Shown: one piece after another, positions 1,273 to 32,000 of the stretch
How positions within the stretch are numbered: position 1 is the stretch's first letter
Layout: each line of letters opens with the position of its first letter
Assembly: GCA_965194595.1 (NCBI GenBank)
Contig: CBDAEK010000001.1
Coordinates: 666,727 to 698,726 of the forward strand
Source: Oxalobacteraceae bacterium
GTDB taxonomy: Bacteria > Pseudomonadota > Gammaproteobacteria > Burkholderiales > Burkholderiaceae_D
Direction of reading: 5' to 3'
DNA: 32,000 nt
Translations under genes and position numbers: made by a program
The notes under the pieces: model-generated
Told to the model about the DNA's origin: nothing
Databases searched by the model: none
Seen by the model: the letters and a program-made list of their open reading frames with translations, nothing else

Positions 1273-1350
1273 AGACGGCACTGTGAAGTTCAAGTGCGTC
1301 ATTTTACCCGAGGGAGAGCTATGCGCAGGAAGAATACAGGACGATAAAGG

Positions 1351-1451
1351 CGAGCCTTGTCTGCGGCACTTGCAGTATATGGCTGTGGCTGCTTCGTTCC
1401 CGACCTGACCAGGTTGACCATGCCACAATGCGCAGGGGCCCGCCGGGCTCG
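1351..1451 (-). ncRNA. ffs: Signal recognition particle RNA (4.5S / small bacterial SRP RNA)
   Basis: The minus strand reads CGAGCCCGGCGGG...CCUGGUCAGGUCGGGAACGAAGCAGCCACAGCC...CAAGGCUCG. The core matches the conserved domain IV of E. coli 4.5S RNA (CCAGGUCAGGUCCGGAAGGAAGCAGCC). The 5' and 3' ends are complementary (cgagcc / ggctcg). It sits directly upstream of dnaX, a common arrangement. The ends are approximate, within about 10 nt. Confidence 0.75.
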
Positions 1452-21067: not shown

Positions 21068-21143
21068 GGGTCGTTAGCTCAGCTGGTAGAGCAGCGGACT
21101 TTTAATCCGTTGGTCGCAAGTTCGAATCTTGCACGACCTACCA
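21068..21143 (+). tRNA. tRNA-Lys (anticodon UUU), CCA encoded
   Basis: The sequence gggtcgttagctcagctggtagagcagcggacttttaatccgttggtcgcaagttcgaatcttgcacgacctacca folds as a cloverleaf. The anticodon loop is CUUUUAA, the T-loop is GTTCGAATC, and the acceptor pairs GGGTCGT with ACGACCT. Confidence 0.95.
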
Positions 21144-21163
21144 AAATTTAATGTTTTAATTCA

Positions 21164-21194
21164 ATGACTTACTGCGAAGTAGGTCATTTTTTTT
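21164..21194 (+). terminator. Intrinsic terminator after tRNA-Lys
   Basis: The stem atgacttac / gtaggtcat is 9 bp including one G-U pair. The loop is tgcgaa, and a run of 8 T follows. Confidence 0.75.
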
Positions 21195-21303
21195 GCCTAT
21201 TTTTTAAGCAAATAAAACGTTACACAGTCGTTGCACAGTTCAACTATTTGCCCTGTGTGAATTTTTGTCTTACACTCGTAAAACGTAAGCACAAACAGCC
21301 CAA

Positions 21304-22686
21304 ATGCCAGATATATCAACAACTACGGTCGTTCTCAAAGAGCAGGAACTAAATCTAGTTCTGCGCCCTGAGACAAAGAACTGGCAGATACATTACAAAA
21401 TTGGTGCTTCAAAAACGTGGCATAGAAAGACATCAGGCACTGCAGATTTAGATGAAGCAAAAAAAATTGCAGATGATGTTTATCACGAAGCGCGAGTGCT
21501 TGATCGTCGTGGCTTAGCAATCGTTAGTAGAAAATTTAAAAGTGTTGCAGAAGTTGTTAGCAAACGTTTTCGAGATGATGTTGCTGCTGGAACTGGAAAA
21601 AAAAGTTACGCAGACTACTATCGTGCAATCGATAGTTACCTCATCCCCTTCTTTGGTAACTACAACATTGATCGCGTCACTCCTGCTGTTATCAATGACT
21701 TTCATCGCTGGCGTAAAGAGAAAGTGGGCTATGAACTCAAAGCCAGCACACAGAACAATCACAACGCTGCATTGAATGCTGTTTTTGATTACGCCGTTGA
21801 AAAAAGTTATCTGGTCGAGAGCCAACGGCCAAGTCTCAAGAACACAGGTGCTGCCACTGCCAATCGAGGCTCATTCACCACCGACGAGTTAATTCAACTA
21901 CAAACGTTTATTCAGCAGTGGAGTGCCAACGCACGTAATGAGCGCAGCCGCTGGCTACGAGAGCTCTTGGGACTCTATGTAACCTTTGTGGCGTGTACGG
22001 GTGTTAGACCAGGCACTGAGACGGAGGATCTGTGTTGGAAGCATATTGAGTTTATTGAAAAACCCAATATGCGTGTGATCCACATCACGCTGCCCAAAGG
22101 CAAGCGTGGCAGCAGAACGCTGATTGCTAGAAATGAACTCTGGCCCTTGTTGGACAAACTGCGTCAGCTGGATCCTGAGCTGGCTGACATGACATTGGAA
22201 GATTTAATCAAGGCCAAATCACCCAAGCTACTTTTTAGAATGCGCGATGGAACCCAGCCATACAATCTAGTTAATTCATTTGCCGACTGTCTTGAAACCT
22301 GCGAACTTAGCAAAAGTGACAGGGATGGCAAAGACCGCAGCTTGTACAGCCTTCGTCACTACTACGCTACGCAGCGGATATTGGAAGGAGTTAGCTACGG
22401 ACAGCTGGCGAACCAGATGGGAACATCGGTCTTGATGATCGAGCGGCACTACAGCCATCTAAAGCCCTTGATGATTGCCGAGCAGTTGGCAGGCGCCATA
22501 CCCGACGCCAAGACTGCTGAAGCTGAAGAAATCCGACGTTTTGCCCAACTAACGCCCATTCAAGCCGACGTGATGAGCTTGATTGCTGCCACAACAGGTG
22601 TACACATCGCTTTGGCTCAAGCTAACCCCAGAGCCACAGACGAATTGCAAAACGCACTTAAAAAATCCAAAGCCAAAGCCCGCTAG
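21304..22686 (+). CDS. Tyrosine-type site-specific integrase (phage integrase family)
   Basis: 460-aa ORF. It has catalytic-domain motifs (TGVRPGTE, LRHYYATQ, ERHYSHL ending in the nucleophile Tyr region) and an N-terminal SAM-like core-binding region. Confidence 0.85.
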   Translation: MPDISTTTVVLKEQELNLVLRPETKNWQIHYKIGASKTWHRKTSGTADLDEAKKIADDVYHEARVLDRRGLAIVSRKFKSVAEVVSKRFRDDVAAGTGKKSYADYYRAIDSYLIPFFGNYNIDRVTPAVINDFHRWRKEKVGYELKASTQNNHNAALNAVFDYAVEKSYLVESQRPSLKNTGAATANRGSFTTDELIQLQTFIQQWSANARNERSRWLRELLGLYVTFVACTGVRPGTETEDLCWKHIEFIEKPNMRVIHITLPKGKRGSRTLIARNELWPLLDKLRQLDPELADMTLEDLIKAKSPKLLFRMRDGTQPYNLVNSFADCLETCELSKSDRDGKDRSLYSLRHYYATQRILEGVSYGQLANQMGTSVLMIERHYSHLKPLMIAEQLAGAIPDAKTAEAEEIRRFAQLTPIQADVMSLIAATTGVHIALAQANPRATDELQNALKKSKAKAR

Positions 22687-22808
22687 GTAGCAAAAAAATG
22701 CTACTGACGCTAACCTATCGCCTAACCCAGTAATTCTTGCTTACAAAACCCAAGAGCATCCTCACGAGCGACACATCTTATGAGTGAAGACAATTCATAC
22801 AGGAGGTT

Positions 22809-23195
22809 ATGGTGACAAGGGAGATTTTAGGAGAGCAACAGATACATCCTGCGATACGTCAGATGGTATCGTCTCACTTTCGCGATACAGTTGAGGACGT
22901 AAAAAATGCCACCGCTGAGCACAGAATAGTCATCGTTGGTATGTCGGGTAACCCCTTTGTATCTAAAGCAAGACAAATACTGCATGACCGAAATATTTCT
23001 TACAAATATTTAGAATACGGTAGCTATCTTAGCCAATGGCGACGACGCAATTCACTTAAAATGTGGACTGGCTGGCCCACGTTCCCCATGATATTTGTCG
23101 ACGGTGTCTTAATCGGTGGTTATCAAGACCTTCAATCATTAATACATTCTGCAGAATTAATTGGGCAACTTGCATCTGAACGCCGATACGATTGA
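22809..23195 (+). CDS. Glutaredoxin-fold protein without any cysteine (monothiol-Grx-like scaffold, active site replaced)
   Basis: 128 aa. WPTFPMIFVDGVLIGGYQDL matches the WPTFPQ..V.GE..GG.D signature of Grx4/GrxD-type glutaredoxins. The position of CGFS is occupied by GNPFVS, and the whole protein contains no Cys. AGGAGG at 22801-22806 is only 2 nt from the ATG, so the GTG at 22812 is an alternative start. Confidence 0.55.
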   Translation: MVTREILGEQQIHPAIRQMVSSHFRDTVEDVKNATAEHRIVIVGMSGNPFVSKARQILHDRNISYKYLEYGSYLSQWRRRNSLKMWTGWPTFPMIFVDGVLIGGYQDLQSLIHSAELIGQLASERRYD

Positions 23196-23202
23196 TAAAC
23201 AC

Positions 23203-23682
23203 ATGAGCCAAGAAGTCATTGATTATTTCAACGAACTTGCCAAGACAGCTGTCAATCGCTGTCATGATCGCGTTGCGGACTTGAAGTTTTTTGAAAGTGT
23301 AAAAGCAAGGCTAGCTGCTGGAGAAGATTTAAGCGGTGAGCTTCCACAGCTGAAAAACGTCAAATCTAGTGACGCCATCTTCGTTGTGGAGAAACTGATC
23401 AAACGCTGCTACGACGACATGGCAGGTTATTGGGATATTCCTAGCAGCGGTGGGATTGACTGCAAGGTCACGTACGAGATGGCTGACAACGAAATCATCC
23501 CACGATTTTCTGCTGTATACCGCATAAAAACAGACGTCGGCGCAGTCACCTTCACCTTGGCTAGTAAAGGCAACCACGTCGACTTGGATGTTGATACGGG
23601 AAGTGTCAAAAATAAGGACACTACGACTGCACTAAGGGAAGTTAGTAGCCTCTTGCTATTTGCTCGTTTACAGCAGAATTAA
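23203..23682 (+). CDS. Hypothetical protein (159 aa), co-oriented with and 7 nt downstream of the Grx-like gene
   Basis: The ORF 23161-23682 is trimmed to the ATG at 23203 (MSQEVIDYFNELAK). I recognise no motif. Confidence 0.45.
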   Translation: MSQEVIDYFNELAKTAVNRCHDRVADLKFFESVKARLAAGEDLSGELPQLKNVKSSDAIFVVEKLIKRCYDDMAGYWDIPSSGGIDCKVTYEMADNEIIPRFSAVYRIKTDVGAVTFTLASKGNHVDLDVDTGSVKNKDTTTALREVSSLLLFARLQQN

Positions 23683-24172
23683 CAAGCTCAAGACGTTGCA
23701 AAGCAAACAAGGTCTCTATTCGAAGATCATTTAGGTCTACTAACGACATACTTTCTTCATCAATCAGTGCCGAATATTTTCCATCTTCAAGCATGAGTGA
23801 AGGGACTAGATTTGAGTTTATATGCTCATAATTAATTCGGCTGTACTCATATATCTCAAGATCAATAATGTAGTCGTATACCTCATCTCTCAGCGGCGTT
23901 GTATCAAAATGACGTCCCGAATCATCCATATTCCACCAGTGCTGAATAATTGCAGTGCAATTATTTAATTTATCAAATTTTTTTACTATCCAGCCACTTA
24001 TACAAATAATTTTTTTATTGGTAAGCTTACTCTTTTCAGCAATGTCATAGGCATTAGTAAAACAACGCTTGGCTAGCCCCCCGCCAACATTTTTTATATC
24101 CGAGCGAAAAACAATTGGCTTGCCTGAATAAGCTTGTCGGGCTTTAATAAAATCTCTCGTTGCTTTATACAT
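23642..24172 (-). CDS. Hypothetical protein; possible transglutaminase/papain-fold cysteine peptidase (Cys37-His78-Asp90 pattern)
   Basis: 176 aa with a strong SD (aAAGGAGaatcaatATG). The pattern KRCFTNAY ... ISGW ... IIQHWWNMDDSGRHFDTTP resembles the C..FA ... H.W.E ... W..FD.T core of transglutaminase-like peptidases. This is a by-eye assignment only. Confidence 0.3.
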   Translation of the reverse strand: MYKATRDFIKARQAYSGKPIVFRSDIKNVGGGLAKRCFTNAYDIAEKSKLTNKKIICISGWIVKKFDKLNNCTAIIQHWWNMDDSGRHFDTTPLRDEVYDYIIDLEIYEYSRINYEHINSNLVPSLMLEDGKYSALIDEESMSLVDLNDLRIETLFALQRLELVNSAVNEQIARGY

Positions 24173-24206
24173 ATTGATTCTCCTTTCAAATTTAAAAATT
24201 AAAAAA

Positions 24207-25688
24207 TTATTGTTCAGATTTAGAAAATCCCTCTAACCTATTTCCCTTGATTGAAAAGTATGGGTTTTGCATTTGGGTCTGCATTTCGCCAATGATTTCG
24301 TGTTGAACATCAACAGATAATTTGTAGCGAACAATAAAAGCGTCATGAATATTGGCAATGGGCCTAATGCTGTACTTGGCCAATACAGCCCTAGCCACAT
24401 CCATCGCTTGGGTTTCGCAGTGTTGATAGAGGTACGCTACTGCTCTTGATTTACTGGGATTTACATTCGGCGTCACCAATGGGCTGAAGTAAATATCAGG
24501 CATTCCATCCTTCATCCCTTCGGCCAAATACTTGTCCAGTTGTGCCTGCTCTTGAATAAACTGTTTGACGATGGGGCACGATAGAAATCGCTCACGCTGT
24601 TCCTGATTTTGTATAAGACTTACCAAGGATGGATTGACCCATTCACCATTAGCTTCACGCCAGCCGTTGTTGTTGGCTCTAGCACCAAACCCAATAGCAG
24701 TGACTGCTTGCTTGATTAATGAATCCTGATAATCAACCGCCAACCCCGAATCCCGACCAAAAGTCTCAGATCGCACATCTCGCATGAATTCTTTGCGATT
24801 AGTCACGTACAAGATAGAGGCCCAATACAGTCGATCAGAGTCTTTTTCTGGATAGAGCTCTCGAGCTAATTCCTTTGCAAAGGTCAGCTTCCAAGTCACC
24901 ACTGCTGAACGAATATCGTATTCCCAGCAATTGCCTAGCATGGCTCGCCTCAAGGTTTTATTAACGTTTTGAACGCTAATCCCCGAGTAGTACATGCGTC
25001 CAAATTCACTGGGTTTACGACGTTGTGGAAATAACCCATTCGTGGTTTTTGCAACCGCTAAAATCGTCATTGCCTGTTCGGTGTATGACCTAACGGTAGA
25101 AGGGGAAAGCTTTGTGGCTTTGGTAGTAAGCCAGACGATATACGCTTGTAATGAGGCAATATCGATTGGGGCATCATCAAATGTAGCTAAGCGCTGCCGC
25201 TTATCAATCATGGTGAAATAATCTGGATAAAGCTTTGCAAACACATCTGCATTAGCTTTTGTATCCATGCATAGCAACTCATCCAGCGAACTCTCCGATG
25301 TGGCGCCGTTAAGTGTTTTGGCTACTGCATCTGCACCACCTTTGAGGGTAACTAACTCCGTTAACTTAACCAGAGAAACTAGTCCCGTTAGGTTGTTACC
25401 AACCTCTACAATCCTGACCAGTTCTAAGTGATTGGCTTTAAGCCACGCATGAAGCCGCTCCTTGCCCGCATTTAATTGCGGACCTTTATGCGTTAGATCC
25501 GCTACTGGGATGGAATACAGATTAAATTTTTCTTCATAAGCGCTGCGCCCGCGCAGAATGGATTTAAAAATCAAGTCTTCTAACAAAACCCGATATTTTT
25601 CCAATGCCTTTTCCGCACATCGAGGTGGCTTGGGATAACTCGAGCGCAACTTAGTGAGCACAATGGGATCAATATCAATTGTGAACAT
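24207..25688 (-). CDS. Family-A (Pol I / T7-like) polymerase-domain protein, stand-alone, no exonuclease domain
   Basis: 493 aa with SD GAGGA 7 nt upstream. FGRMYYSGISVQNV aligns gap-free with Klenow TGRLSSTDPNLQNI. The motif A candidate is WEYD258IRSAV. ETFG-x14-K326QAVTAIGFG aligns gap-free with EVFG-x14-KAINFGLIYG (O-helix). Motif C is NIHD449AF. The K-to-D spacing is 123, versus 124 in Klenow. Confidence 0.5.
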   Translation of the reverse strand: MFTIDIDPIVLTKLRSSYPKPPRCAEKALEKYRVLLEDLIFKSILRGRSAYEEKFNLYSIPVADLTHKGPQLNAGKERLHAWLKANHLELVRIVEVGNNLTGLVSLVKLTELVTLKGGADAVAKTLNGATSESSLDELLCMDTKANADVFAKLYPDYFTMIDKRQRLATFDDAPIDIASLQAYIVWLTTKATKLSPSTVRSYTEQAMTILAVAKTTNGLFPQRRKPSEFGRMYYSGISVQNVNKTLRRAMLGNCWEYDIRSAVVTWKLTFAKELARELYPEKDSDRLYWASILYVTNRKEFMRDVRSETFGRDSGLAVDYQDSLIKQAVTAIGFGARANNNGWREANGEWVNPSLVSLIQNQEQRERFLSCPIVKQFIQEQAQLDKYLAEGMKDGMPDIYFSPLVTPNVNPSKSRAVAYLYQHCETQAMDVARAVLAKYSIRPIANIHDAFIVRYKLSVDVQHEIIGEMQTQMQNPYFSIKGNRLEGFSKSEQ

Positions 25689-25875
25689 ACGTAGTCCTCG
25701 TTATTTTTTGTTTAAATTCTTAAAAAATACACACACTTATAGTAAGAAGCTCCGCTTCCAAAAGCCCTGTGCTTGCCCGATGCAAGTGAAAAGAGAGAGG
25801 CGAAGCCGAGGTCAGACCCTCTGCTCCTTTTTTTAGAGGTGAGGTATCAGTAGTGTTTTTGACGGTCAGAGGCGT

Positions 25876-25912
25876 CAAGTATCTGGACGCTAATTGCCCG
25901 TCCAGATACTTG
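25876..25912. repeat. Perfect 14-bp inverted repeat (hairpin) between the 322-aa gene and the polymerase-like gene
   Basis: The arm caagtatctggacg (25876-25889) is the perfect reverse complement of cgtccagatacttg (25899-25912), with a 9-nt loop. No U-run follows on the transcribed (minus) strand. Confidence 0.8.
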
Positions 25913-25927
25913 CGCTACAGAGTTTTG

Positions 25928-26896
25928 TTACTTGGCTGCACCAAAGCCCACTTGCTTCTCAAGCTCACCTACCAACTCCGAGAGCTCAGAAGTGTCAGCA
26001 CCCATACGCTCAGCTATCGAGCCCAACAACTGATCTTCAAACGAGCGATCAAACACGTTGCCTTGCACAACGTGATACTTGCCCGTACTAGGGTTACGCA
26101 CCGACATAAACAGTACAAAGCGACCTGCTTCGTACTTAGGGTCCACCGTGTCGTCCTTGTTACCTGCCTTGCCTTTCTTTGCAGGTTTCTCAGGTACCCA
26201 GTTGTTTAGGACGTCGTTATAATCCAGCGTCGTTTGTGCGCTGTGCGCCAAAATTGTGTACAAACGACCTACCAGATCAGTACGTGAGTTTTTATCATCA
26301 CGTAGAGTTTTGGCCAGTACCTCAGCGTTAGCTAAATCGTCAGCTTCGTGATCAAAGACTTTCTCAACCACTTTAGTAACACCGCCGTGCTCAGCTAGAA
26401 AATCTGCAAACTCGTTTGTTGCCACACCCAGTGCTGCTGCCTTTTCTAAAGCAATCGTATAGTTGTTACGTGACTGACGTGATTGGTCAGAAAACACATA
26501 GCGCACAGCAACAGCCATCGTGCTTGCATTAGTGGGTACTGACTGCAGATCACGCTGCTGTATTGCTTTAATCAGCTCTTGCCGTGTCTCACGCTTTAAG
26601 GGTGAGCGCTCTACAGAGTCACCGTAGGCATAGACCTGTTCTAGCAAAGACCACAGTGCACGGTCAGAACGATCCAATACGTCAACCTTTAGCTTGCTGT
26701 AGCTCTCAACCAAAAAGTCAGCGTGCGAAATCGCTTGCTGCACACCAGGAGTTGTTGTGCCAAGTGCTTTGCCAACTGCACTGGCTAAGGGCTTTAAACG
26801 GAAAACATTGCTCAAAGGGGTTTTGATAGCTGCGCCCGAAGTTGCAACGAAAGCGTTGGTCGAGACAGGTGCTGCTGCGAGAGTAGTTGTAGACAT
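25928..26896 (-). CDS. Hypothetical protein (322 aa), first gene of the minus-strand module
   Basis: A long ORF with protein-like composition and an Ala/Thr-rich, probably disordered N-terminal ~60 aa. I recognise no motif. Confidence 0.5.
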   Translation of the reverse strand: MSTTTLAAAPVSTNAFVATSGAAIKTPLSNVFRLKPLASAVGKALGTTTPGVQQAISHADFLVESYSKLKVDVLDRSDRALWSLLEQVYAYGDSVERSPLKRETRQELIKAIQQRDLQSVPTNASTMAVAVRYVFSDQSRQSRNNYTIALEKAAALGVATNEFADFLAEHGGVTKVVEKVFDHEADDLANAEVLAKTLRDDKNSRTDLVGRLYTILAHSAQTTLDYNDVLNNWVPEKPAKKGKAGNKDDTVDPKYEAGRFVLFMSVRNPSTGKYHVVQGNVFDRSFEDQLLGSIAERMGADTSELSELVGELEKQVGFGAAK

Positions 26897-26994
26897 GGCG
26901 ATACCTTTTTAAAATAAAGTTAATAAGTTATTACTATCGATCCGCGGTATTGCGTTTCGATACGCCATTAGACCAATTCATAACATTTTTAATC

Positions 26995-27003
26995 TGATAT
27001 AAT
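26995..27003 (+). promoter_or_regulatory. Extended -10 promoter element (TGaTATAAT) upstream of the 330-aa gene
   Basis: tgatataat lies at 26995-27003, 32 nt upstream of the ATG at 27035. It sits in the 138-bp divergent intergenic region. Confidence 0.45.
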
Positions 27004-27034
27004 TTTTCCTGTTATGAATTACAGAAATTAGCCC

Positions 27035-28027
27035 ATGACTACCCCCAGAAGCCGCTTTTACAAAGGCCTCACTGGCTTTACGGCGAGTACAGAGGAAGAG
27101 ATTTATGAGATAGCGGACAACAGCATTTACCGCTGGTGGTGGGAGTTCATGCGCCTTAGCCCGATCTTTTGGTATGCGGGCAAAACTGGCCATCAACCCA
27201 TTAAAGACAGCATGGCCAAGACCTACCAGTCAGCTGGCAATTTAAAGTTGATTTCGTTTACTGGATGGTGGGATCAGTTCGGAAAATACATCTTTGAAGA
27301 ACCACAGCGCCCAAGACCTGCACGAAAAGTAGACATAGAACAGCTACAACAGCACAAGCTGTATAAGAAAAGTATCTTGGTAGAGATACCGTTAACAGCC
27401 ACCAATAAAAAAATACACAGCGATATTAAGAAAATACTTAAAGCCGAAGGTCATAATCTCACTGCCTTGTCCGTAGTACAGGCCAGCGAATCTATGCTTA
27501 AACTGCACAGCAAAAAGTATCATTCGGCAGCCATAGAAAATGAGTATTGGGTTTTGTTATACCGAATACTTTATCCAAAGACTCCGTTGTGGAAAATCGG
27601 CGATAGATTACAAATCAATCCCACAAATCGAGTTCGAGGATTAAATCCAAGAGAGGTCTCTGACGAATATTATCGAGGCAGAGGTCCCATTGCAAAAATG
27701 CAGAGCGTGGTTGGACGTTGCTACTACAAGGCTCGATTCGCTAGGTACCATGCTGAGCATGGGAGCTTTCCGAACTACACTAAAGTTGATGAGGAACTAG
27801 ATTTCAAGCCGTTTGGTGCAGAAATACACCCAGATTTTTTAGCTGCAACTGATGAATCAACGACTAAAGATTCGGCTTGGCAAAAACACATACGTCGTTT
27901 GTATGAAGAGAAGCTTCACGATCAAATTCTTCATAAAAATAATATCACGGGATTATTGGTCACCGAGCTAAAAGCTTCAGGTCGATTGAAGCAATTTACG
28001 TCAGGAGAAATAGACAGCATTAATTAA
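27035..28027 (+). CDS. Hypothetical protein (330 aa) with a Trp-rich N-terminal motif and a possible central HTH
   Basis: It has the N-terminal motif SIYRWWWEFMRLSPIFWY, a central segment TPLWKIGDRLQINPTNRVRG that looks helix-turn-helix-like, and KARFARYHAEHGSFPNY. It is transcribed divergently from the polymerase module. Confidence 0.45.
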   Translation: MTTPRSRFYKGLTGFTASTEEEIYEIADNSIYRWWWEFMRLSPIFWYAGKTGHQPIKDSMAKTYQSAGNLKLISFTGWWDQFGKYIFEEPQRPRPARKVDIEQLQQHKLYKKSILVEIPLTATNKKIHSDIKKILKAEGHNLTALSVVQASESMLKLHSKKYHSAAIENEYWVLLYRILYPKTPLWKIGDRLQINPTNRVRGLNPREVSDEYYRGRGPIAKMQSVVGRCYYKARFARYHAEHGSFPNYTKVDEELDFKPFGAEIHPDFLAATDESTTKDSAWQKHIRRLYEEKLHDQILHKNNITGLLVTELKASGRLKQFTSGEIDSIN

Positions 28028-28192
28028 ATCCTGCATGTGTCCATAGTCTGGACAACTCAAGTTTGTCCAAAGCACTTTGTGCGTCATTTATATGTAAGGT
28101 CGACAGGCGTCAATAATCTTGACAGAATTGGGCTGCAGTCGTCAGCAATAAATGCCCCTTGGGTAAATACAATACCCAAGGAGATAACGCAC

Positions 28193-28564
28193 ATGAGATT
28201 TTATGAATTTGCCCCAGCTAAGCCTGTACTAAAAATCAGCCAACAGCAACAAGCACAACAAGCTGGGCTGCAAAGCACCACCCCTCCAACACCTTGGCCA
28301 CAGAATACGCAGCCAACACCCGCACCACGATCAGTCAAGGTGTATCCCGAGAAGTGGCAGCGCCAGTGGGTTCAAAAATACCTAGCTGCGAAAATCGCCC
28401 AAAATGCCCAAACTGTTCGACCCAGCAAAGAAGATCTGATTCGGGCTTACATGCTGTATGGCGAAGCTCGACGTAAAGCCAATCAAGATTATGAGGAAAC
28501 ACAGGGGAAAGATGAAGAATCTGGCTGGGGAAACGATCACCGCTGGACTCGTCGAGATAATTAA
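28193..28564 (+). CDS. Hypothetical protein (123 aa), Gln/Pro-rich N-terminal half
   Basis: The ORF 28037-28564 is trimmed to the ATG at 28193, which is preceded by cAAGGAGataacgcac. Its stop codon overlaps the stop codon of the convergent recombinase gene. Confidence 0.4.
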   Translation: MRFYEFAPAKPVLKISQQQQAQQAGLQSTTPPTPWPQNTQPTPAPRSVKVYPEKWQRQWVQKYLAAKIAQNAQTVRPSKEDLIRAYMLYGEARRKANQDYEETQGKDEESGWGNDHRWTRRDN

Positions 28565-29226
28565 ACCAACTCCACCGCCCTACGCTTCATATCGTCATTA
28601 ACGTCAATGTAGGCTTGGGTGGTGCTGATTGACCTATGTCCAGCTAAACTCATCAGCACACGCACACCAACGCCTTTTGCTGCCAAGTTAGTGATGAAAG
28701 TACGCCTACCCGAATGACTACTACCACCAGCAATGCCCGCTCGTTTGTACAAGTAATGAAAGTGCTGTGCTAGGGTGTTAGGGGTGAACCCCTCACGCTT
28801 TTGTGTGTAGAACAGTGGTGAGTTAGGATTAGTGGGTTTGTGGCTGCGTACATAAGCCTCAAGCTCACGCTTTAGTTTGGCATTGACGAACACAGTACGA
28901 GCATGACGCCCTTTGGTCTGTGCGGGTTCTAGCTGTATCTCATCACGTATCTTGCCCACGTCATCCACTACGTCTGCATATCTCAAATAAGCCACTTCAC
29001 CTACACGCATACCAGCCCAATGCGTTACTAACAGCATTGTGCGATTACGAAGTGCATGTTTGTGCTGTGCGACATAATCAAGCACTTGCTTCAAATTTTG
29101 CTGCGTTAGTGTTTTTGCTTGCTTGGGCATAGTTTGTTTTCGCTCCCCTAACCAAAACTTTGCTATGCGTACAGCGTAATTTCTTTGTTTTGTTTGGGCG
29201 ACCTGTTTTTGGTGGTTTTTTTTCAA
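28561..29226 (-). CDS. Short tyrosine recombinase, mostly catalytic domain (about 190-221 aa)
   Basis: Catalytic motifs are present: WAGMRVGEV (Arg I), HSGRRTF (His-x-x-Arg) and AGHRSISTTQAYIDV (His/Tyr nucleophile region). There is no long N-terminal arm-binding domain. A TTG start at 29226 has SD GAGGA 7 nt upstream. An internal ATG (MPKQAK) is an alternative start. Confidence 0.75.
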   Translation of the reverse strand: MKKNHQKQVAQTKQRNYAVRIAKFWLGERKQTMPKQAKTLTQQNLKQVLDYVAQHKHALRNRTMLLVTHWAGMRVGEVAYLRYADVVDDVGKIRDEIQLEPAQTKGRHARTVFVNAKLKRELEAYVRSHKPTNPNSPLFYTQKREGFTPNTLAQHFHYLYKRAGIAGGSSHSGRRTFITNLAAKGVGVRVLMSLAGHRSISTTQAYIDVNDDMKRRAVELV

Positions 29227-29411
29227 ATTTTCGTCCTCTGTAAATTCAATGACTTAGCTACTGATTACAGCAAAATCAAATCAAATGCTAATTCTGTTTG
29301 ATTTGTATATTTAGCTAATCTGTTGCTGATCTCGCAGGATTTTGTGCTGAAAATTCAGGCACAGCGAAAGAGTTGATTGAAATAACGAGATCGAGTTGCG
29401 AAATTTCGCCG

Positions 29412-29434
29412 TTATTCACAAATTATGTGGATAA
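29412..29434. promoter_or_regulatory. Pair of inverted DnaA-box consensus sites
   Basis: TTATTCACA at 29412-29420 matches TTATNCACA. TGTGGATAA at 29426-29434 is the reverse complement of TTATCCACA. They are separated by 5 bp. The 12-bp palindrome GCGAAATTTCGC (29398-29409) lies immediately upstream. Confidence 0.5.
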
Positions 29435-30253
29435 CTCAGTGCGACTGCGTACACACCCTACAAGCTGTTTTCGCTCTGTATAGCTGCCAAAGCACTACTG
29501 ATGCTTTTAAAGCTGCTGTAGAGCTTGTAAAGCAGCACATTGCTGCTGGGTTTTGTGTGACCGCAGCTCGGCATTTGTAGTGTTTGCTGTTTTACTGATT
29601 ACGAAATAGCTAAGTGATGTTGAGAGCGAACTGCGTTCGCTGTGCCTTCGCTATCTTCGCTCACTCGCGTTCGCTTAGTTAGCTCGTCACAGATATTTCA
29701 AGTTCTAGATTTCAAATGCTTGGAAGTATTTCGAAATTGGTTTGTTTGAAATCATGTTATGTGTTTGGCTTTCGCTAGATTCAACCCACACTGAGCCTTA
29801 CACAGCAGGCTCAGTGTGAGAGAAAGATCTTTCGCTGAGTTCTTTACTCCACTGCACTTCGGCACAACCTCTACGAGGTCAAGGGCGGTTTTGCTGTCTC
29901 CTTTTACGTGCTGCTGAATTAAAACGCAATCCACACCACAGCCGAAGTGCCGACCATGGCAGGTTTGTAGGTTGCCGTGTGAGCATTGCCTACTCGTGAT
30001 GCTCTGCCGTTGAGGCAGCATCTTTGTGCTTGATATTTCATTCTCTGGTCAATTGGGCTAGCAAAACCCAATAGCATCAAGGGTAGTGACCATGAGTCCC
30101 TGCTACTGCTCAGGATTTCCGTCCCTGCGATCATGTCTGTCCAGGTCTAGGGTGCCATTAGACTGAGTGGCACTGCTCGTTATCAGTAGTAATACGGGAT
30201 AGCACAGACTGTTCATTGCTGACGTCCCTCACAGTTATTTAGTCAAACCAAAC

Positions 30254-30290
30254 AAAACCCACGAAAAATCTAATGGGTTTTGTGGGTTTT
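30254..30290 (+). terminator. Terminator-like hairpin at the right end of the ORF-free region
   Basis: The stem aaaacccac (30254-30262) pairs with gtgggtttt (30282-30290), and an alternative inner pairing aaaaccca/tgggtttt is possible. T residues follow on the + strand, and TTTTGTTTGGTTT follows on the - strand. Confidence 0.4.
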
Positions 30291-30396
30291 AGACAGCAGC
30301 GTGGCAATCTCTCACAAAATCTGCGTAATTTTGGTCGTTCTTTGACCAAATCAGTCATAACTTATGTGTGCAGTTCAACTTTTAAGGAGAGCACAC

Positions 30397-30837
30397 ATGA
30401 ATGCATTAACTGGATTAAAGCTAGTCGCTAGCAAGAAAAATCGTACCCTTTCCCCAGTAGCCCATCGCCGTAACAAACTCGTCAACAAGCTGCATGAGCA
30501 GATTGAGTTATGCGAAGCACAAAAAGCTGGTGAGATTTATGCACCCCGTCGTCTGCGTACTGTCACTAACAAGCAAACTGGTGAACGTGTGACTATTGAA
30601 GCTGTCAAGCGTGTGAAGGAATGGTTTTGGATTAATGACGCTGGAAAAATCAATCTTGCTGTGCGCTATGGCAGCAAAGTGCTGGAACTAGCCAAGGGCA
30701 AGAATGCCATTGAGCTTGGCAGTGGTGACGAACTAATAGCTGCCTTACATGCACTTAAAGCAGCGGCACTGGCAGGGGAACTTGACGCACAGATTGAAGC
30801 TGCCAGTGGAGCGTTAAGGGCTGGGTTTGTTAAGTAG
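30397..30837 (+). CDS. Hypothetical protein (146 aa)
   Basis: The ORF 30364-30837 is trimmed to the ATG at 30397, which is preceded by tAAGGAGagcacac. The sequence MNALTGLKLVASKK...AGELDAQIEAASGALRAGF looks like a conserved island/ICE-associated protein family, but I cannot name it reliably. Confidence 0.55.
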   Translation: MNALTGLKLVASKKNRTLSPVAHRRNKLVNKLHEQIELCEAQKAGEIYAPRRLRTVTNKQTGERVTIEAVKRVKEWFWINDAGKINLAVRYGSKVLELAKGKNAIELGSGDELIAALHALKAAALAGELDAQIEAASGALRAGFVK

Positions 30838-31203
30838 TGGCGTTGCAGACGCCACGCCAATTGGTGCAGCTAGCACCAATGACCCAGCTTGTGGCAAACC
30901 CAGTGTCAAGCTGACGCTGGGTATTTCAACATTCGTAGCTGCGAATGTTGATACCACAAGCATTGATTTGGTTTAATCAGCACAGCTAGTGATGATTGAA
31001 GCAAACTAACTTTACTAATAGAGGGCGCCGCTGGCGCCCTGTTAGCTGGCGTGTACGCTGGCGACAGTCAGCAAAGCTATAAGACGACAATGACAGCCTC
31101 CCAGCGAGGCGTGTTTTGGCATTGAGACGATCTATCTCTGTAAGCCTGGGCCCAGGCACGATTTGAAAGAGGTAGAGGTAGCAAAGCACTCATTGCCTCA
31201 AGC

Positions 31204-31410
31204 TTAAATTCCAACGTTTACCGCTAACTTGTCTTTTACATCAGAAATCCTCCTACATACAAGATTATGCATCTCGTTATGGGATGCACTTTCCGGGGGG
31301 ATGCACTTTCCGGGGGCAAGCTCAACATCGGCAAAGCTAAGCATGCCCTGACCATTCTGCAGAAACGTTTGGCACCCACCAAGAAAAAGTGTCAAACTCA
31401 AAATCGGCAT
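31204..31410 (-). CDS. Possible small lipoprotein ORF (68 aa) interrupted by, or created by, a 17-bp tandem duplication
   Basis: The N-terminus MPILSLTLFLGGC has a lipobox. The reading frame passes through the duplication at 31282-31315. With a single copy, the ORF would stop after about 41 codons. Confidence 0.25.
   Translation of the reverse strand: MPILSLTLFLGGCQTFLQNGQGMLSFADVELAPGKCIPPESASHNEMHNLVCRRISDVKDKLAVNVGI
31282..31315. repeat. Perfect 17-bp tandem duplication
   Basis: The unit ggatgcactttccgggg occurs at 31282-31298 and is repeated exactly at 31299-31315. Confidence 0.95.
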
Positions 31411-31521
31411 TGCTGTAAGTAATGTGGACAGTTTTTAATGAATAGAGTCTAGATTTAAGGCATGATTAAAACAGCGAATACTATTTGCCAAAAGCAAAAG
31501 TCATAACAAAAACGATTTTTT

Positions 31522-31803
31522 CTACATAGATTTGCCTAACCAAAATTTACGTTCAATAAGTGAATATTTCCAACCTTTTGATGCCATACAGTCGCGAAAT
31601 TTTTCGCTGATGTATATGGTTTGCTTAGGATCTTCGGCATTCGCAAAAACAAACAAATTTTTACTATTGCATTCACGTTCCGAAGACTCAAAGCTAAGTT
31701 TGGAAGCACTTTTGATATCGACATGGGTAATTTGATAAACACCGCCACAACCGGAAATCAAAGCACTTGCGAGGCTAAAAAAAATTATTAATGATTTATT
31801 CAT
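31522..31803 (-). CDS. Small lipoprotein (93 aa)
   Basis: The ORF 31522-31827 is trimmed to the ATG at 31803. The signal peptide MNKSLIIFFSLASALISGC has a lipobox. Confidence 0.55.
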   Translation of the reverse strand: MNKSLIIFFSLASALISGCGGVYQITHVDIKSASKLSFESSERECNSKNLFVFANAEDPKQTIYISEKFRDCMASKGWKYSLIERKFWLGKSM

Positions 31804-31823
31804 AATGATTATAGTTCGTGGTT

Positions 31824-32000
31824 TCAAGTACGAAGTGCAACACGGTTTAAAGATTCATGAAACACCTGATGAGGAGTTTTAAATCCTAATCGTTTTCTAG
31901 GGCGGTGATTCAATCGATCTTCAATCATTTTAAGCTCGGCATCAGTAACAGTCGATAAGTGCCGCTTTTTAGGAATGTACTGCCGTAATAAGCCGTTGTA
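31824..32000 (-). mobile_element. IS30-family transposase, C-terminal ~58 codons (the rest lies beyond the window)
   Basis: My minus-strand translation reads YNGLLRQYIPKKRHLSTVTDAELKMIEDRLNHRPRKRLGFKTPHQVFHESLNRVALRT*. The L(N)xRPRKxLGFKTPxxVF tail is characteristic of IS30-family DDE transposases. The stop codon is at 31826-31824. Confidence 0.7.

Follow-up and report, generated by a model that had tools for sequence, protein, structure and literature searches.

The window analysed here, a stretch of 32,000 nucleotides from an Oxalobacteraceae bacterium, contains an island that is integrated at a tRNA-Lys(UUU) gene and encodes POL, a protein of 493 aa (Table 1). A Logan contig of 10,731 nt which is 100% identical to the window spans exactly the interval given for the island, the G+C content of the island is 0.41-0.48 as against mostly 0.46-0.54 upstream of it, and two related elements flanked by repeats of the tRNA 3' end (40 nt or longer) measure 9.5 and 12.2 kb. 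Related elements are inserted at genes for tRNA-Asn, Lys, Val, Ser, Arg and Met. A copy of the tRNA-Lys 3' end that would mark attR was not found within the window. An exact 14-nt repeat with copies at 21158 and 29243 is unlikely to be the att site, since the copy at 29243 belongs to a region upstream of Int221 which is conserved in locus L001, and L001 has no copy after its own tRNA. The search for iteron-like repeats in the island returned nothing beyond short low-score arrays and one 17-nt duplication, and the promoter and terminator scan gave no signal above background. The Polynucleobacter-1 RNA, considered as a part of the system, is missing from 16 related loci and was rejected.

Table 1. 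Features of the island and of the POL gene, in coordinates of the window
Feature	Position	Strand	Basis
tRNA-Lys(UUU), integration target and left island boundary	21068..21143	+	ARAGORN, Rfam
Island, approximate extent with a presumed right end	21115..31845	.	Logan contig, related elements, G+C
Int460, large tyrosine integrase beside the tRNA attachment site	21304..22686	+	phrog_1 E 2e-30; Pfam SAM-like domains
o173, conserved small gene accompanying Int460	23161..23682	+	homologues in 18 loci, always just inside Int460
POL, minimal family-A polymerase (TV-Pol-like), 493 aa	24207..25688	-	ORF, homologues, model, Foldseek
POL motif C, H448-D449-A450	24339..24347	-	conservation; alignment to H881-D882-E883
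POL motif B/O-helix end, K326-x3-T330-x3-F334-G335	24684..24713	-	ungapped hhalign register; conservation
POL D258 codon, presumed motif A metal ligand	24915..24917	-	231/232; strand from model
POL R231 codon, equivalent to Klenow R668 (TGR)	24996..24998	-	232/232; hhalign; model hairpin
GAGGA ribosome-binding site (Shine-Dalgarno), 6 nt 5' of POL ATG	25695..25699	-	read from sequence
o322, conserved element gene, here directly upstream of POL on the same strand	25928..26896	-	homologues in 26 loci
o330, conserved element gene	27035..28027	+	homologues in 31 loci
Int221, small catalytic-domain-only Xer/FimB-like tyrosine recombinase, the second of the element	28561..29226	-	PF00589 E 6e-27
DUF6641 protein	30397..30837	+	PF20346 E 5e-8; phrog_31551 E 2e-29

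A set of 80 related loci was retrieved with POL as the query, and POL is found in all 80 by construction because it served as the query. The survey of gene neighbourhoods, which had been proposed along with an earlier sequence-only reading of this DNA, shows that the recombinases, DUF6641 and tRNA sites recur across related loci, with a conserved order of Int221 / DUF6876 / POL / DUF6641 / o330 / o322 / o173 / Int460 / tRNA in dozens of them. The element carries two tyrosine recombinases, a DUF6641 protein and often a DUF6876 protein. Homologues of Int460 are tRNA-proximal in 21 loci; Int221, for which NCBIfam Xer and invertase matches fall below their cut-offs, lies upstream of POL in 36 of the 46 loci whose sequence extends for 5 kb or more on that side. 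Among 62 informative loci, 45 have the DUF6641 gene immediately after POL in the same orientation and 12 lack it; it is also absent from all phage contigs, and it is fused to POL in one protein (P0152). In the window it lies 4.7 kb from POL, not adjacent to it and on the opposite strand. The DUF6641 model (pLDDT 71.7) has no significant structural match, the best having an E value of 0.1, and so speaks neither for nor against an OB-fold SSB. No match to o322 was found in Pfam, PHROG, NCBIfam or PDB, and none to a known family for o330 in the searches. The conserved genes of the element include neither a helicase nor any other recognisable replication gene, and no Walker-A ORF is conserved inside the elements.

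POL is a core gene of this tRNA-integrating element of about 10 kb, which is abundant in freshwater Betaproteobacteria. The family occurs in Limnohabitans, Polynucleobacter and Oxalobacteraceae, often in several copies per genome, and several genomes hold the maximum of three. Distant relatives (26-34% identity) are encoded in podophage-like viral contigs together with terminase, portal, capsid and tail genes; tblastn of POL and divergent members of the family against GenBank phages and PLSDB plasmids gave no match except a weak one to a Desulfovibrio phage.

Family, fold and active site of POL

The 493-aa open reading frame is real; it starts with an ATG codon, and M1 is invariant across homologues. 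At least 567 homologues were found, and the family forms 785 clusters at 50% identity. POL is composed of a family-specific N-terminal alpha/beta domain (residues ~1-140) and a conserved thumb/palm/fingers core (~140-490), and the phage relatives align to it from residues ~139-192 onward only. Pfam searches with POL gave no match at E values up to 10, neither to DNA_pol_A (PF00476) nor to T7-like RNA polymerase (PF00940), the two profiles to which the sequence-only reading had pointed, and PF00476 was likewise absent at E up to 0.01 among 36 divergent members of the family. Searches of Pfam, NCBIfam, PHROGs, PADLOC and PDB sequences with POL or family profiles returned nothing informative, and the sole PDB profile match of the family, an FNIP-repeat protein, was judged spurious. 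The family is annotated everywhere as hypothetical, as no Pfam, NCBIfam or PADLOC model describes it. No nuclease domain was detected in Pfam searches with POL and the 36 divergent members, in agreement with the earlier claim that exonuclease domains are missing.

The AlphaFold model of POL (pLDDT 84.3) was compared with known structures by Foldseek. All of the top 50 PDB matches are family-A DNA polymerases and none is an RNA polymerase; the best is Klenow (1kfd, E 6.8e-7, probability 1.00, TM about 0.4), so the structural comparison suggested with the sequence-only reading came out in its favour. In BFVD the first three matches are uncharacterised members of the POL family, followed by Zamilon V6BPG7, a Qinghai Lake virophage 'helicase/primase/polymerase' and proteins of Pyramimonas orientalis virus (E 1e-9 to 1e-10), with an rmsd of 4-7 Å for the virophage and giant-virus proteins as against 12-19 Å for most of the PolA matches listed. 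The polymerase part of the virophage "primase-helicase" fits the POL model better than Klenow does (E 1e-9 to 1e-10 vs 7e-7). It is the N-terminal part of such V13-type proteins that was defined as a TV-Pol, a class of minimal PolA/T7-RNAP-like polymerases found in small viruses and in mobile elements that carry an integrase or resolvase (Iyer, Abhiman and Aravind 2008, Biol Direct 3:39, PMC2579912). The POL model runs from an Arg-bearing beta-hairpin (219-226/232-234, with R231 in its turn) through palm strand beta-1 (254-260), which holds D258, a helical fingers insert (263-438) and a helix to a beta-hairpin in which H448-D449 lie between strands 445-447 and 450-453. The topology of the model is the layout that Iyer et al. 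describe for TV-Pols.

Conservation was counted in 232 full-length homologues with identities down to 22%, of which 229-232 (99-100%) retain each of R231, R247, D258, K326, F334, G335, Q422, E425, H448 and D449. Alignment of the POL family by hhalign with a profile of 12 PolA sequences (P 2.3e-4 over 224 columns) gives the expected registers for motif 2, motif B, Q849 and motif C; this profile restored the register of motif B, which was shifted by 4 with the single E. coli PolA sequence, and hhalign against single E. coli PolA, T7 DNAP and T7 RNAP sequences was too weak. Two pairings proposed from the sequence alone, FGR231...Q240N with TGR668...Q677N678 and H448-D449 with H881-D882, were reproduced by hhalign. 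The third, ETFG-x14-K326-x7-F-G with EVFG-x14-K758-x7-Y766-G, is ungapped with the 12-sequence profile, although its Phe is residue 334 and not 333 as first numbered. Within motif B, K326 (231/232) is equivalent to K758, T330 (207/232) to F762, and F334 (231/232) and G335 (232/232) to Y766-G767; in motif C, H448 is kept in 231 and D449 in 230 of the 232 homologues.

The proposed catalytic residues D258, K326 and D449 turned out to be conserved across homologues (231, 231 and 230 of 232, respectively), and their spacings of 68 and 123 residues, compared with 53 and 124 in Klenow, had been calculated correctly. The registers of K326 and D449 are recovered by hhalign, whereas the pairing of D258 with D705 is missing from an alignment in which motif A is locally misaligned; D258 is presumed to correspond to D705 because it is invariant and is placed in palm strand beta-1 of the model. 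The retention of catalytic residues in at least 99% of 232 sequences indicates selection on catalysis. What is inferred for POL is its catalytic activity, its priming, its template and its sugar specificity, together with the role of DUF6641. Structure, conservation and hhalign thus agree with the initial view of POL as a stand-alone, nuclease-free, family-A-like polymerase domain on a tRNA island.

The family also departs from PolA at several key positions. Residue 322, four before the O-helix Lys and equivalent to R754, is variable and non-basic (E/D/V/N/T) in the 232 homologues, which means that the RxxxK Arg is missing, as had been noted for POL itself. Residue 450 is A, G, C or S and never E, so that HDA stands in place of HDE. 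At the tabulated positions 259-267, from which residue 265 was left out, no conserved acid occurs in the 232 homologues; this upholds the claim that the steric-gate Glu (E710) has been lost, but its counterpart, given as Val, may be either V263 or K267. Thr (T330) stands at the position of F762. Out of the full motif B (R-x3-K-x3-F-x3-Y-G), the steric-gate Glu and HDE, POL keeps only K326 and F334-G335. The likeness of its IHDAF motif C to that of RNA polymerases is real but not diagnostic, given the absence of RNA polymerases from the 50 best structural matches, an hhalign alignment with T7 RNAP that covers only 36 columns around motif C (P 0.04), and the QHDG found at motif C of MAP_030 from the Microcystis phage Ma-LMM01, which we take to be the TV-Pol of that phage. 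The sequence link between the POL family and MAP_030 is weak (P 0.02-0.05), and the motif pattern is common to both.

The role of POL in the element

Sugar choice aside, POL is most likely the replicase or primase-polymerase of the element, and among the functions offered by the sequence-only reading an element-specific replicase or primer-synthesising enzyme is the best supported. The more specific proposal that POL is a TV-Pol-type replicase of the ~10-kb tRNA-integrating element is given a probability of roughly 0.6. In its favour are the fold, the hhalign link to PolA, the conserved residues of the active site, the siting on a mobile element beside recombinases and DUF6641, the occurrence in several copies, and the distant relatives in viral contigs. 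Int460 would excise the element as a circle on which POL would start and extend DNA synthesis, probably as a primase-polymerase by analogy with CCPol-MP of SCCmec, an A-family primase-polymerase that is likewise encoded on a recombinase-bearing element (Bebel et al. 2020, PMC7581432). The linked small DUF6641 protein possibly helps POL, and the Xer-like Int221 would resolve multimers. No helicase is encoded by the element, which would leave unwinding to the host or to strand displacement by POL itself; a helicase is usual in TV-Pol and CCPol modules, and its absence here counts against a replicase. The missing RxxxK Arg, the weak sequence link to MAP_030 and the uneven presence of DUF6641, which is not next to POL in the window and has no significant structural match, also weigh against this proposal.

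A DNA product is not assured, since the equivalents of E710 and F762, which favour dNTPs and are kept by CCPol, are absent from POL. It is tentatively suggested, at rather low probability, that a TV-Pol subfamily lacking E710, F762 and the RxxxK Arg may use ribonucleotides, and would represent an RNA primase or RNA polymerase of family-A fold with a core of ~350 residues, perhaps pairing with DUF6641 in a novel priming system of two proteins, on an integrative element or satellite that has no helicase and resides in freshwater Betaproteobacteria. That POL makes RNA, either as a miniature single-subunit RNA polymerase for the element genes or as an RNA-primer primase for a host DNA polymerase, is unlikely. 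Its HDA/G motif C resembles HDS of T7 RNAP and not HDE, yet none of the top 50 PDB matches is an RNA polymerase and the alignment with T7 RNAP does not extend beyond those 36 columns around motif C. The lack of a conserved acidic steric gate after motif A and the Thr at F762 would fit ribonucleotide use, as would the retention of both E710 and F762 in the dNTP-preferring CCPol, but the equivalent of the 2'-OH reader Y639 of T7 RNAP is F334. The exchange Y639F in T7 RNAP relaxes rNTP selection. A length of 493 aa would moreover offer limited space for a domain that recognises promoters, or for a specificity loop, as in T7 RNAP, and the small-phage relatives occupy the place expected of a replicase, even though Yutin et al. 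(2024, PMC11348598) raise the option of an RNA product for the divergent phage polymerase divPolA2.

It is quite unlikely that POL is cargo, in the form of a repair or translesion-type polymerase or a nucleic-acid-synthesising anti-phage effector that is dispensable for propagation of the element. Islands at tRNA genes often carry defence and repair genes, the neighbours of POL are proteins of unknown function and the element is without a helicase, but the position of POL relative to the recombinases and DUF6641 is conserved across related loci, up to three copies occur per genome, and the homologues in phage genomes adjoin structural genes. The option of a defence effector raised at the outset is unsupported, as POL and six neighbours have no match in PADLOC (PADLOC-DB 2.0) at E up to 1 and POL belongs to the core genes of the element and occurs in multiple copies. 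A catalytically dead polymerase fold reused for DNA binding or structure, to which the missing RxxxK Arg and third acidic residue (motif C) might point, is very improbable in view of the two metal-ligand Asp residues, the O-helix Lys, the Y/F-G pair, the hairpin Arg and the Q849-like Q422, all of which are kept in at least 99% of the 232 homologues.

Naming the POL family would allow an entire class of ~10-kb tRNA islands in freshwater bacteria to be recognised as probable self-replicating elements. The subfamily is large (~800 clusters at 50% identity) and ecologically prominent, and its altered nucleotide-selection residues make POL a compact test case for sugar choice and de novo chain start in family A.

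Comparison with known systems

T7-like single-subunit RNA polymerases (PF00940) belong to the same superfamily as POL and share with it HD followed by a small residue at motif C and the K-x7-aromatic-G of motif B. Unlike them, POL is about half the size and has no N-terminal promoter-binding domain, carries Phe in place of the 2'-OH-sensing Tyr, and has neither a Pfam match nor a top structural match to this group. The divPolA2 proteins of barbaviruses and Vibrio phages, divergent PolA enzymes whose DNA or RNA product is unsettled (Yutin et al. 2024, PMC11348598), are like POL exonuclease-less and equipped with a novel N-terminal domain, but have FDE at motif C and are phage-borne beside a regular PolB; a kinship with POL was rejected, as hhalign aligns 38 columns only (P 0.036). 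With the DNA polymerase I domain (Klenow, Klentaq, T7 gp5; PF00476) the POL model shares its fold, and POL has equivalents of TGR668, Q677/N678, R690, K758, Y766-G767, Q849 and H881-D882. It differs from PolA in the absence of a Pfam match and of exonuclease domains, in a distance from motif A to motif B that is 15 residues longer, and in the positions of R754, F762, E710 and E883, which are unconserved in the POL family.

The sequence-only reading knew of no precedent for such an enzyme, but both CCPol-MP (PMC7581432) and the TV-Pols (PMC2579912) precede it. CCPol is, like POL, an exonuclease-less A-family polymerase encoded on a recombinase-bearing element, and each has a small protein linked to it, in the case of POL one of unknown family, DUF6641, directly downstream in 45 of 62 loci. 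The partner MP of CCPol is a predicted OB fold and the helicase Cch2 is next in the operon (PMC7581432), whereas the DUF6641 model has no significant structural match and the POL element no helicase. CCPol furthermore keeps E710 and F762, which are lost in POL, and prefers dNTPs (PMC7581432), and its recombinases are serine-type whereas those of the POL element are tyrosine-type. PolA-SSB pairs also occur in mobile elements of Bacillota (Rice lab 2023, PMC10061031). Among the relatives of TV-Pols, CCPol-MP is the only one that has been biochemically tested.

A role in copying small mobile DNA elements was predicted for the TV-Pols in 2008; the family includes the N-terminal domain of Sputnik V13 as well as stand-alone forms in bacterial integrase/resolvase elements (Iyer et al., PMC2579912). 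POL differs from them in that it lacks the fingers RxxxK Arg, which is reported to be highly conserved across TV-Pols, PolA and T7 RNAP (PMC2579912), in that no D5-type helicase is linked to it, and in its N-terminal domain, which is alpha/beta in the model as opposed to the all-helical TV-PolN described. In other respects the likeness is close: POL consists of a nuclease-free minimal thumb/palm/fingers core with no nuclease among its conserved neighbours, its model shows the beta-hairpin Arg (R231), an RRM-like palm with two Asp and the fingers inserted after strand 1, it is encoded by an integrase-bearing mobile element and has relatives in phage contigs, and virophage proteins of the V13 type are the annotated structures that match its model best. 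POL therefore most likely fits the TV-Pol family and is not a new kind of enzyme but a member of a known, barely characterised and largely anticipated one.

Fold and active site of the polymerase-like protein

POL is a 493-aa protein with a GAGGA ribosome-binding site 6 nt 5' of its ATG. The sequence-only reading treated it as an orphan, but at least 567 homologues, all unnamed and none with a Pfam domain, are present in a collection of 5.8 billion proteins, and an HMM run exhaustively against 1.84 billion cluster representatives matched 785 proteins at E values up to 1e-3. Neither POL nor its family profile is recognised by Pfam, NCBIfam, PHROGs, PADLOC or the PDB sequence set, and the anticipated match to family-A DNA polymerases emerges from structure comparison with Foldseek and not from Pfam. 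The AlphaFold2 model (33 homologues as input, mean pLDDT 84.3) has the family-A fold: its top 50 PDB matches are all family-A DNA polymerases with no RNA polymerase among them, led by Klenow (1kfd, E 6.8e-7) and followed by T7 gp5, Taq, Bst, Pol theta and the apicoplast polymerase. Among predicted viral structures the first three matches are uncharacterised proteins of uncultured tailed phages (TM at most 0.71, 25% identity). The next block comprises virophage and giant-virus replication proteins (E 1e-9 to 1e-10, rmsd 4-7 Å over ~340 columns), including the Zamilon 'DNA replication protein', the Qinghai Lake virophage 'helicase/primase/polymerase' and a protein of Pyramimonas orientalis virus, while ordinary PolA matches less well (about E 1e-6, rmsd 12-19 Å for most listed matches). 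The first ~140 residues of the model form a family-specific alpha/beta domain; phage-borne relatives align to POL only from residue ~139-192 onwards. Residues 1-170 contain no invariant acidic residue in the homologue alignment and a Pfam search found no nuclease domain in POL, as expected from the reported lack of an exonuclease.

The catalytic set is conserved in 232 full-length homologues with identities down to 22%: R231, R247 and G335 occur in all 232, D258, K326, F334 and H448 in 231, E425 and D449 in 230 and Q422 in 229, which bears out the near-invariance of the proposed catalytic residues D258, K326 and D449. Aligned with hhalign to a profile of E. coli PolA, T7 gp5 and ten diverse phage PolAs, the family matches over 224 columns (P 2.3e-4, family 226-473 against Klenow 663-904). 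Here FGR231 pairs with TGR668, Q240 with Q677, Q422 with Q849 and H448-D449-A450 with H881-D882-E883, and ETFG pairs with EVFG and continues ungapped to K326 (K758), T330 (F762) and F334-G335 (Y766-G767). The registers read by eye for FGR231, K326 and H448-D449 are thereby reproduced; the O-helix block keeps its ungapped register with the Phe at residue 334 and not 333. A single E. coli PolA sequence as partner displaces motif B by four residues, a shift settled by the 12-sequence profile and in agreement with the O-like helix of the model, which ends at residue 333 directly before F334-G335. Motif A is the weak spot of the alignment, as D258 and D705 are not aligned with each other by hhalign; D258 is accepted by inference as the motif A ligand because palm strand beta-1 (254-260) has no other invariant acid.

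The departures of POL from PolA are real. The Arg of the R-x3-K motif is missing as reported, position 322 (four before the Lys) being E, D, V, N or T; residue 330, the counterpart of F762, is Thr in 207/232 homologues and residue 450 is A, G, C or S, never Glu. No conserved acidic residue occurs at the tabulated positions between 259 and 267 (residue 265 lies outside the table), so that, judged from the alignment, the steric-gate Glu is missing in either register, with V263 or K267 as the candidate residue at that site. Losing the counterparts of E710, F762 and E883 would suit a POL that synthesises RNA as a mini-RNAP or RNA primase, but this is disfavoured by the structural matches of the model, the small size of POL and a Phe at its Y639-equivalent position.

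The element and its conserved genes

Features of the window (positions in the window)
Feature	Position	Strand	Details
Small SRP RNA (RF00169, bacterial)	1346-1444	-	76.7 bits; host chromosome, unrelated to POL
tRNA-Lys(UUU)	21068-21143		island start, just past pal and cpoB
Direct repeat AATTCAATGACTTA, first copy	21158-21171		exact, 14 nt, just past tRNA
Glutaredoxin-domain protein (PF00462)	22809-23195	+	E 4e-8; gene overlaps start of o173
POL	24207-25688	-	493 aa, ATG start
Inverted repeat	25876-25912		perfect, 14 bp, 9-nt loop, no T-run; between o322 stop and POL start
Gln/Pro-rich protein	28037-28564	+	175 aa; related to the Pro-rich protein after DUF6641 in canonical elements
Inverted DUF6641-Int221 pair	28561-30837		on the other side of POL
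Direct repeat AATTCAATGACTTA, second copy	29243-29256		just upstream of Int221
Polynucleobacter-1 RNA (RF01718)	30045-30178	-	full-length match, 84.7 bits, E 7.5e-17
Tandem duplication of GGGATGCACTTTCCGGG	31281-31314		perfect, 17-nt unit, near presumed right island end

POL is a core gene of a multi-copy element that integrates at tRNA genes. The 80 related loci found in GTDB genomes are nearly all from freshwater Betaproteobacteria (among them Limnohabitans, Polynucleobacter, Oxalobacteraceae and Comamonadaceae), with three copies in several genomes, and show a conserved order around POL, the recombinases and the tRNA. The canonical order is Int221 (a small Xer/FimB-like tyrosine recombinase, divergent from the others), DUF6876, POL, DUF6641, a Pro-rich protein, o330 on the opposite strand, o322, variable genes, o173, the large integrase Int460 and the tRNA, which may be tRNA-Asn, Lys, Val, Ser, Arg or Met. 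Two related elements of 9.5 and 12.2 kb are flanked by tRNA 3'-end repeats of at least 40 nt; no attR was found within the window. G+C is 0.41-0.48 in the island compared to mostly 0.46-0.54 upstream. Logan contig ERR15093866_49 (10,731 nt) is 100% identical to 21115-31845 and holds the island alone, starting in the T-arm of tRNA-Lys and stopping 155 nt short of the window end, which fits an island of ~10.7 kb. Its ends may lie at the island borders, where the assembly graph would branch between strains with and without the island, or reflect an excised form. That POL is cargo, as a repair enzyme or defence effector, is disfavoured by its conserved position among the core genes, its multiple copies per genome and the lack of a PADLOC match.

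POL is linked to DUF6641 (PF20346) and two recombinases. In 45 of the 62 loci with enough sequence DUF6641 is the next gene downstream, encoded on the strand of POL, and P0152, a 650-aa member of the 785-protein set, joins POL (residues 1-~478) to DUF6641 (residues 509-645, E 5e-37) at its C-terminus, in keeping with the usual gene order. The model of DUF6641, a candidate SSB-like partner, begins with a long helix, is rich in beta-strands in its middle and ends with two helices (pLDDT 71.7); it gave no significant structural match. About 40 loci have DUF6876 (PF21781, E 4e-31) upstream of POL and on its strand (~0.4-1 kb away in, for example, L003, L005 and L015); it is absent from the window. 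The elements of the related loci lack a helicase: none of the proteins conserved within them has a Walker-A motif.

Relative to the canonical loci L015, L019, L036 and L064, the DUF6641-Int221 pair is inverted to the other side of POL in the window, L001, L040 and L074; in the window POL comes after o322. Int221 is similar both to small invertases of the FimB type and to Xer recombinases. The second AATTCAATGACTTA copy is kept in L001, where the first is absent; the repeat may be a recombinase site or due to chance (E 0.007). The inverted repeat upstream of POL may serve as an operator or fold into an RNA hairpin. Polynucleobacter-1 RNA, an orphan Rfam family (Weinberg et al. 2010), falls in a 1.1-kb ORF-free gap between Int221 and DUF6641 and, being absent from 16 related loci scanned, is ruled out as a fixed part of the element.

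POL also has relatives in small phages, 13 IMG/VR viral contigs encoding proteins of 26-34% identity. Terminase, portal, major capsid and tail genes are present in those examined, with a podophage adaptor domain among them, and none carries DUF6641, Int221 or DUF6876. In three podophage-like contigs of 28-39 kb (L083, L084, L087) the relatives (31-34% identity) lie beside endonuclease VII, terminase, portal, capsid and tail genes, and recombinases are lacking.

Predicted function

POL is predicted to be an active TV-Pol-type polymerase (probability about 0.9), and the near-perfect conservation of its active site disfavours a dead enzyme. It is rather more doubtful, if still the favoured reading, that POL is the replicase of its element, and de novo priming is put forward tentatively. 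Int460 would excise the element, whose circular form POL would then replicate, priming and extending possibly with DUF6641 by analogy with TV-Pol predictions and CCPol-MP; unwinding would come from a host helicase or strand displacement and Int221 would resolve multimers.

Comparison with TV-Pol and CCPol

The features of POL match the TV-Pol family defined by Iyer, Abhiman & Aravind, whose core has a thumb, a beta-hairpin with an invariant Arg, and an RRM-like palm with two Asp and the fingers inserted after its first strand (PMC2579912). TV-Pol never carries a nuclease; it is fused to a D5 helicase in small viruses (e.g. Sputnik V13), stands alone in bacterial elements that encode lambda-type integrases, resolvases or transposases, and was named in the genome of Microcystis phage Ma-LMM01 (PMC2579912). 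The topology of the POL model follows this description and its virophage matches back membership. A 506-aa hypothetical Ma-LMM01 ORF beside transposases, which we presume to be the TV-Pol of that genome, gives weak pairwise statistics against the POL family (P 0.02-0.05) and shares its motif series (G-x-R-x-Y...Q...R; Y-D; V-K-T-A-V-L-A-V-x-x-G-A-R; L-L-Q-x-x-E; Q-H-D-G). Like POL, it lacks the Arg four residues before the Lys and the Glu after HD. The 'RNAP-like' motif C of the sequence-only reading, correct as to the missing Glu, therefore seems common to at least one other presumed TV-Pol and no sign of RNA synthesis.

The polymerase-like ORF recognised from the sequence is confirmed by fold, conservation and registers, and POL is probably the element's replicase or primase as suggested; it is not of a new kind or without precedent, TV-Pol having been described in 2008 with CCPol as one biochemical precedent. 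The new part is modest: POL belongs to a large subfamily without annotation in which nucleotide-selection residues are altered, DUF6641 is the partner and a helicase is lacking, and this subfamily defines a class of tRNA islands that is widespread in fresh water. Profile comparison showed no specific similarity to divPolA2, another divergent phage PolA (PMC11348598). CCPol of SCCmec, the sole biochemically tested relative, belongs to the A-family polymerases, has no exonuclease and turns into a primase that uses dNTPs once bound to the small MP protein encoded just downstream (PMC7581432), and PolA-SSB pairs of this kind are widespread in Bacillota elements (PMC10061031). Unlike the POL family, CCPol keeps both E710 and F762 (PMC7581432).
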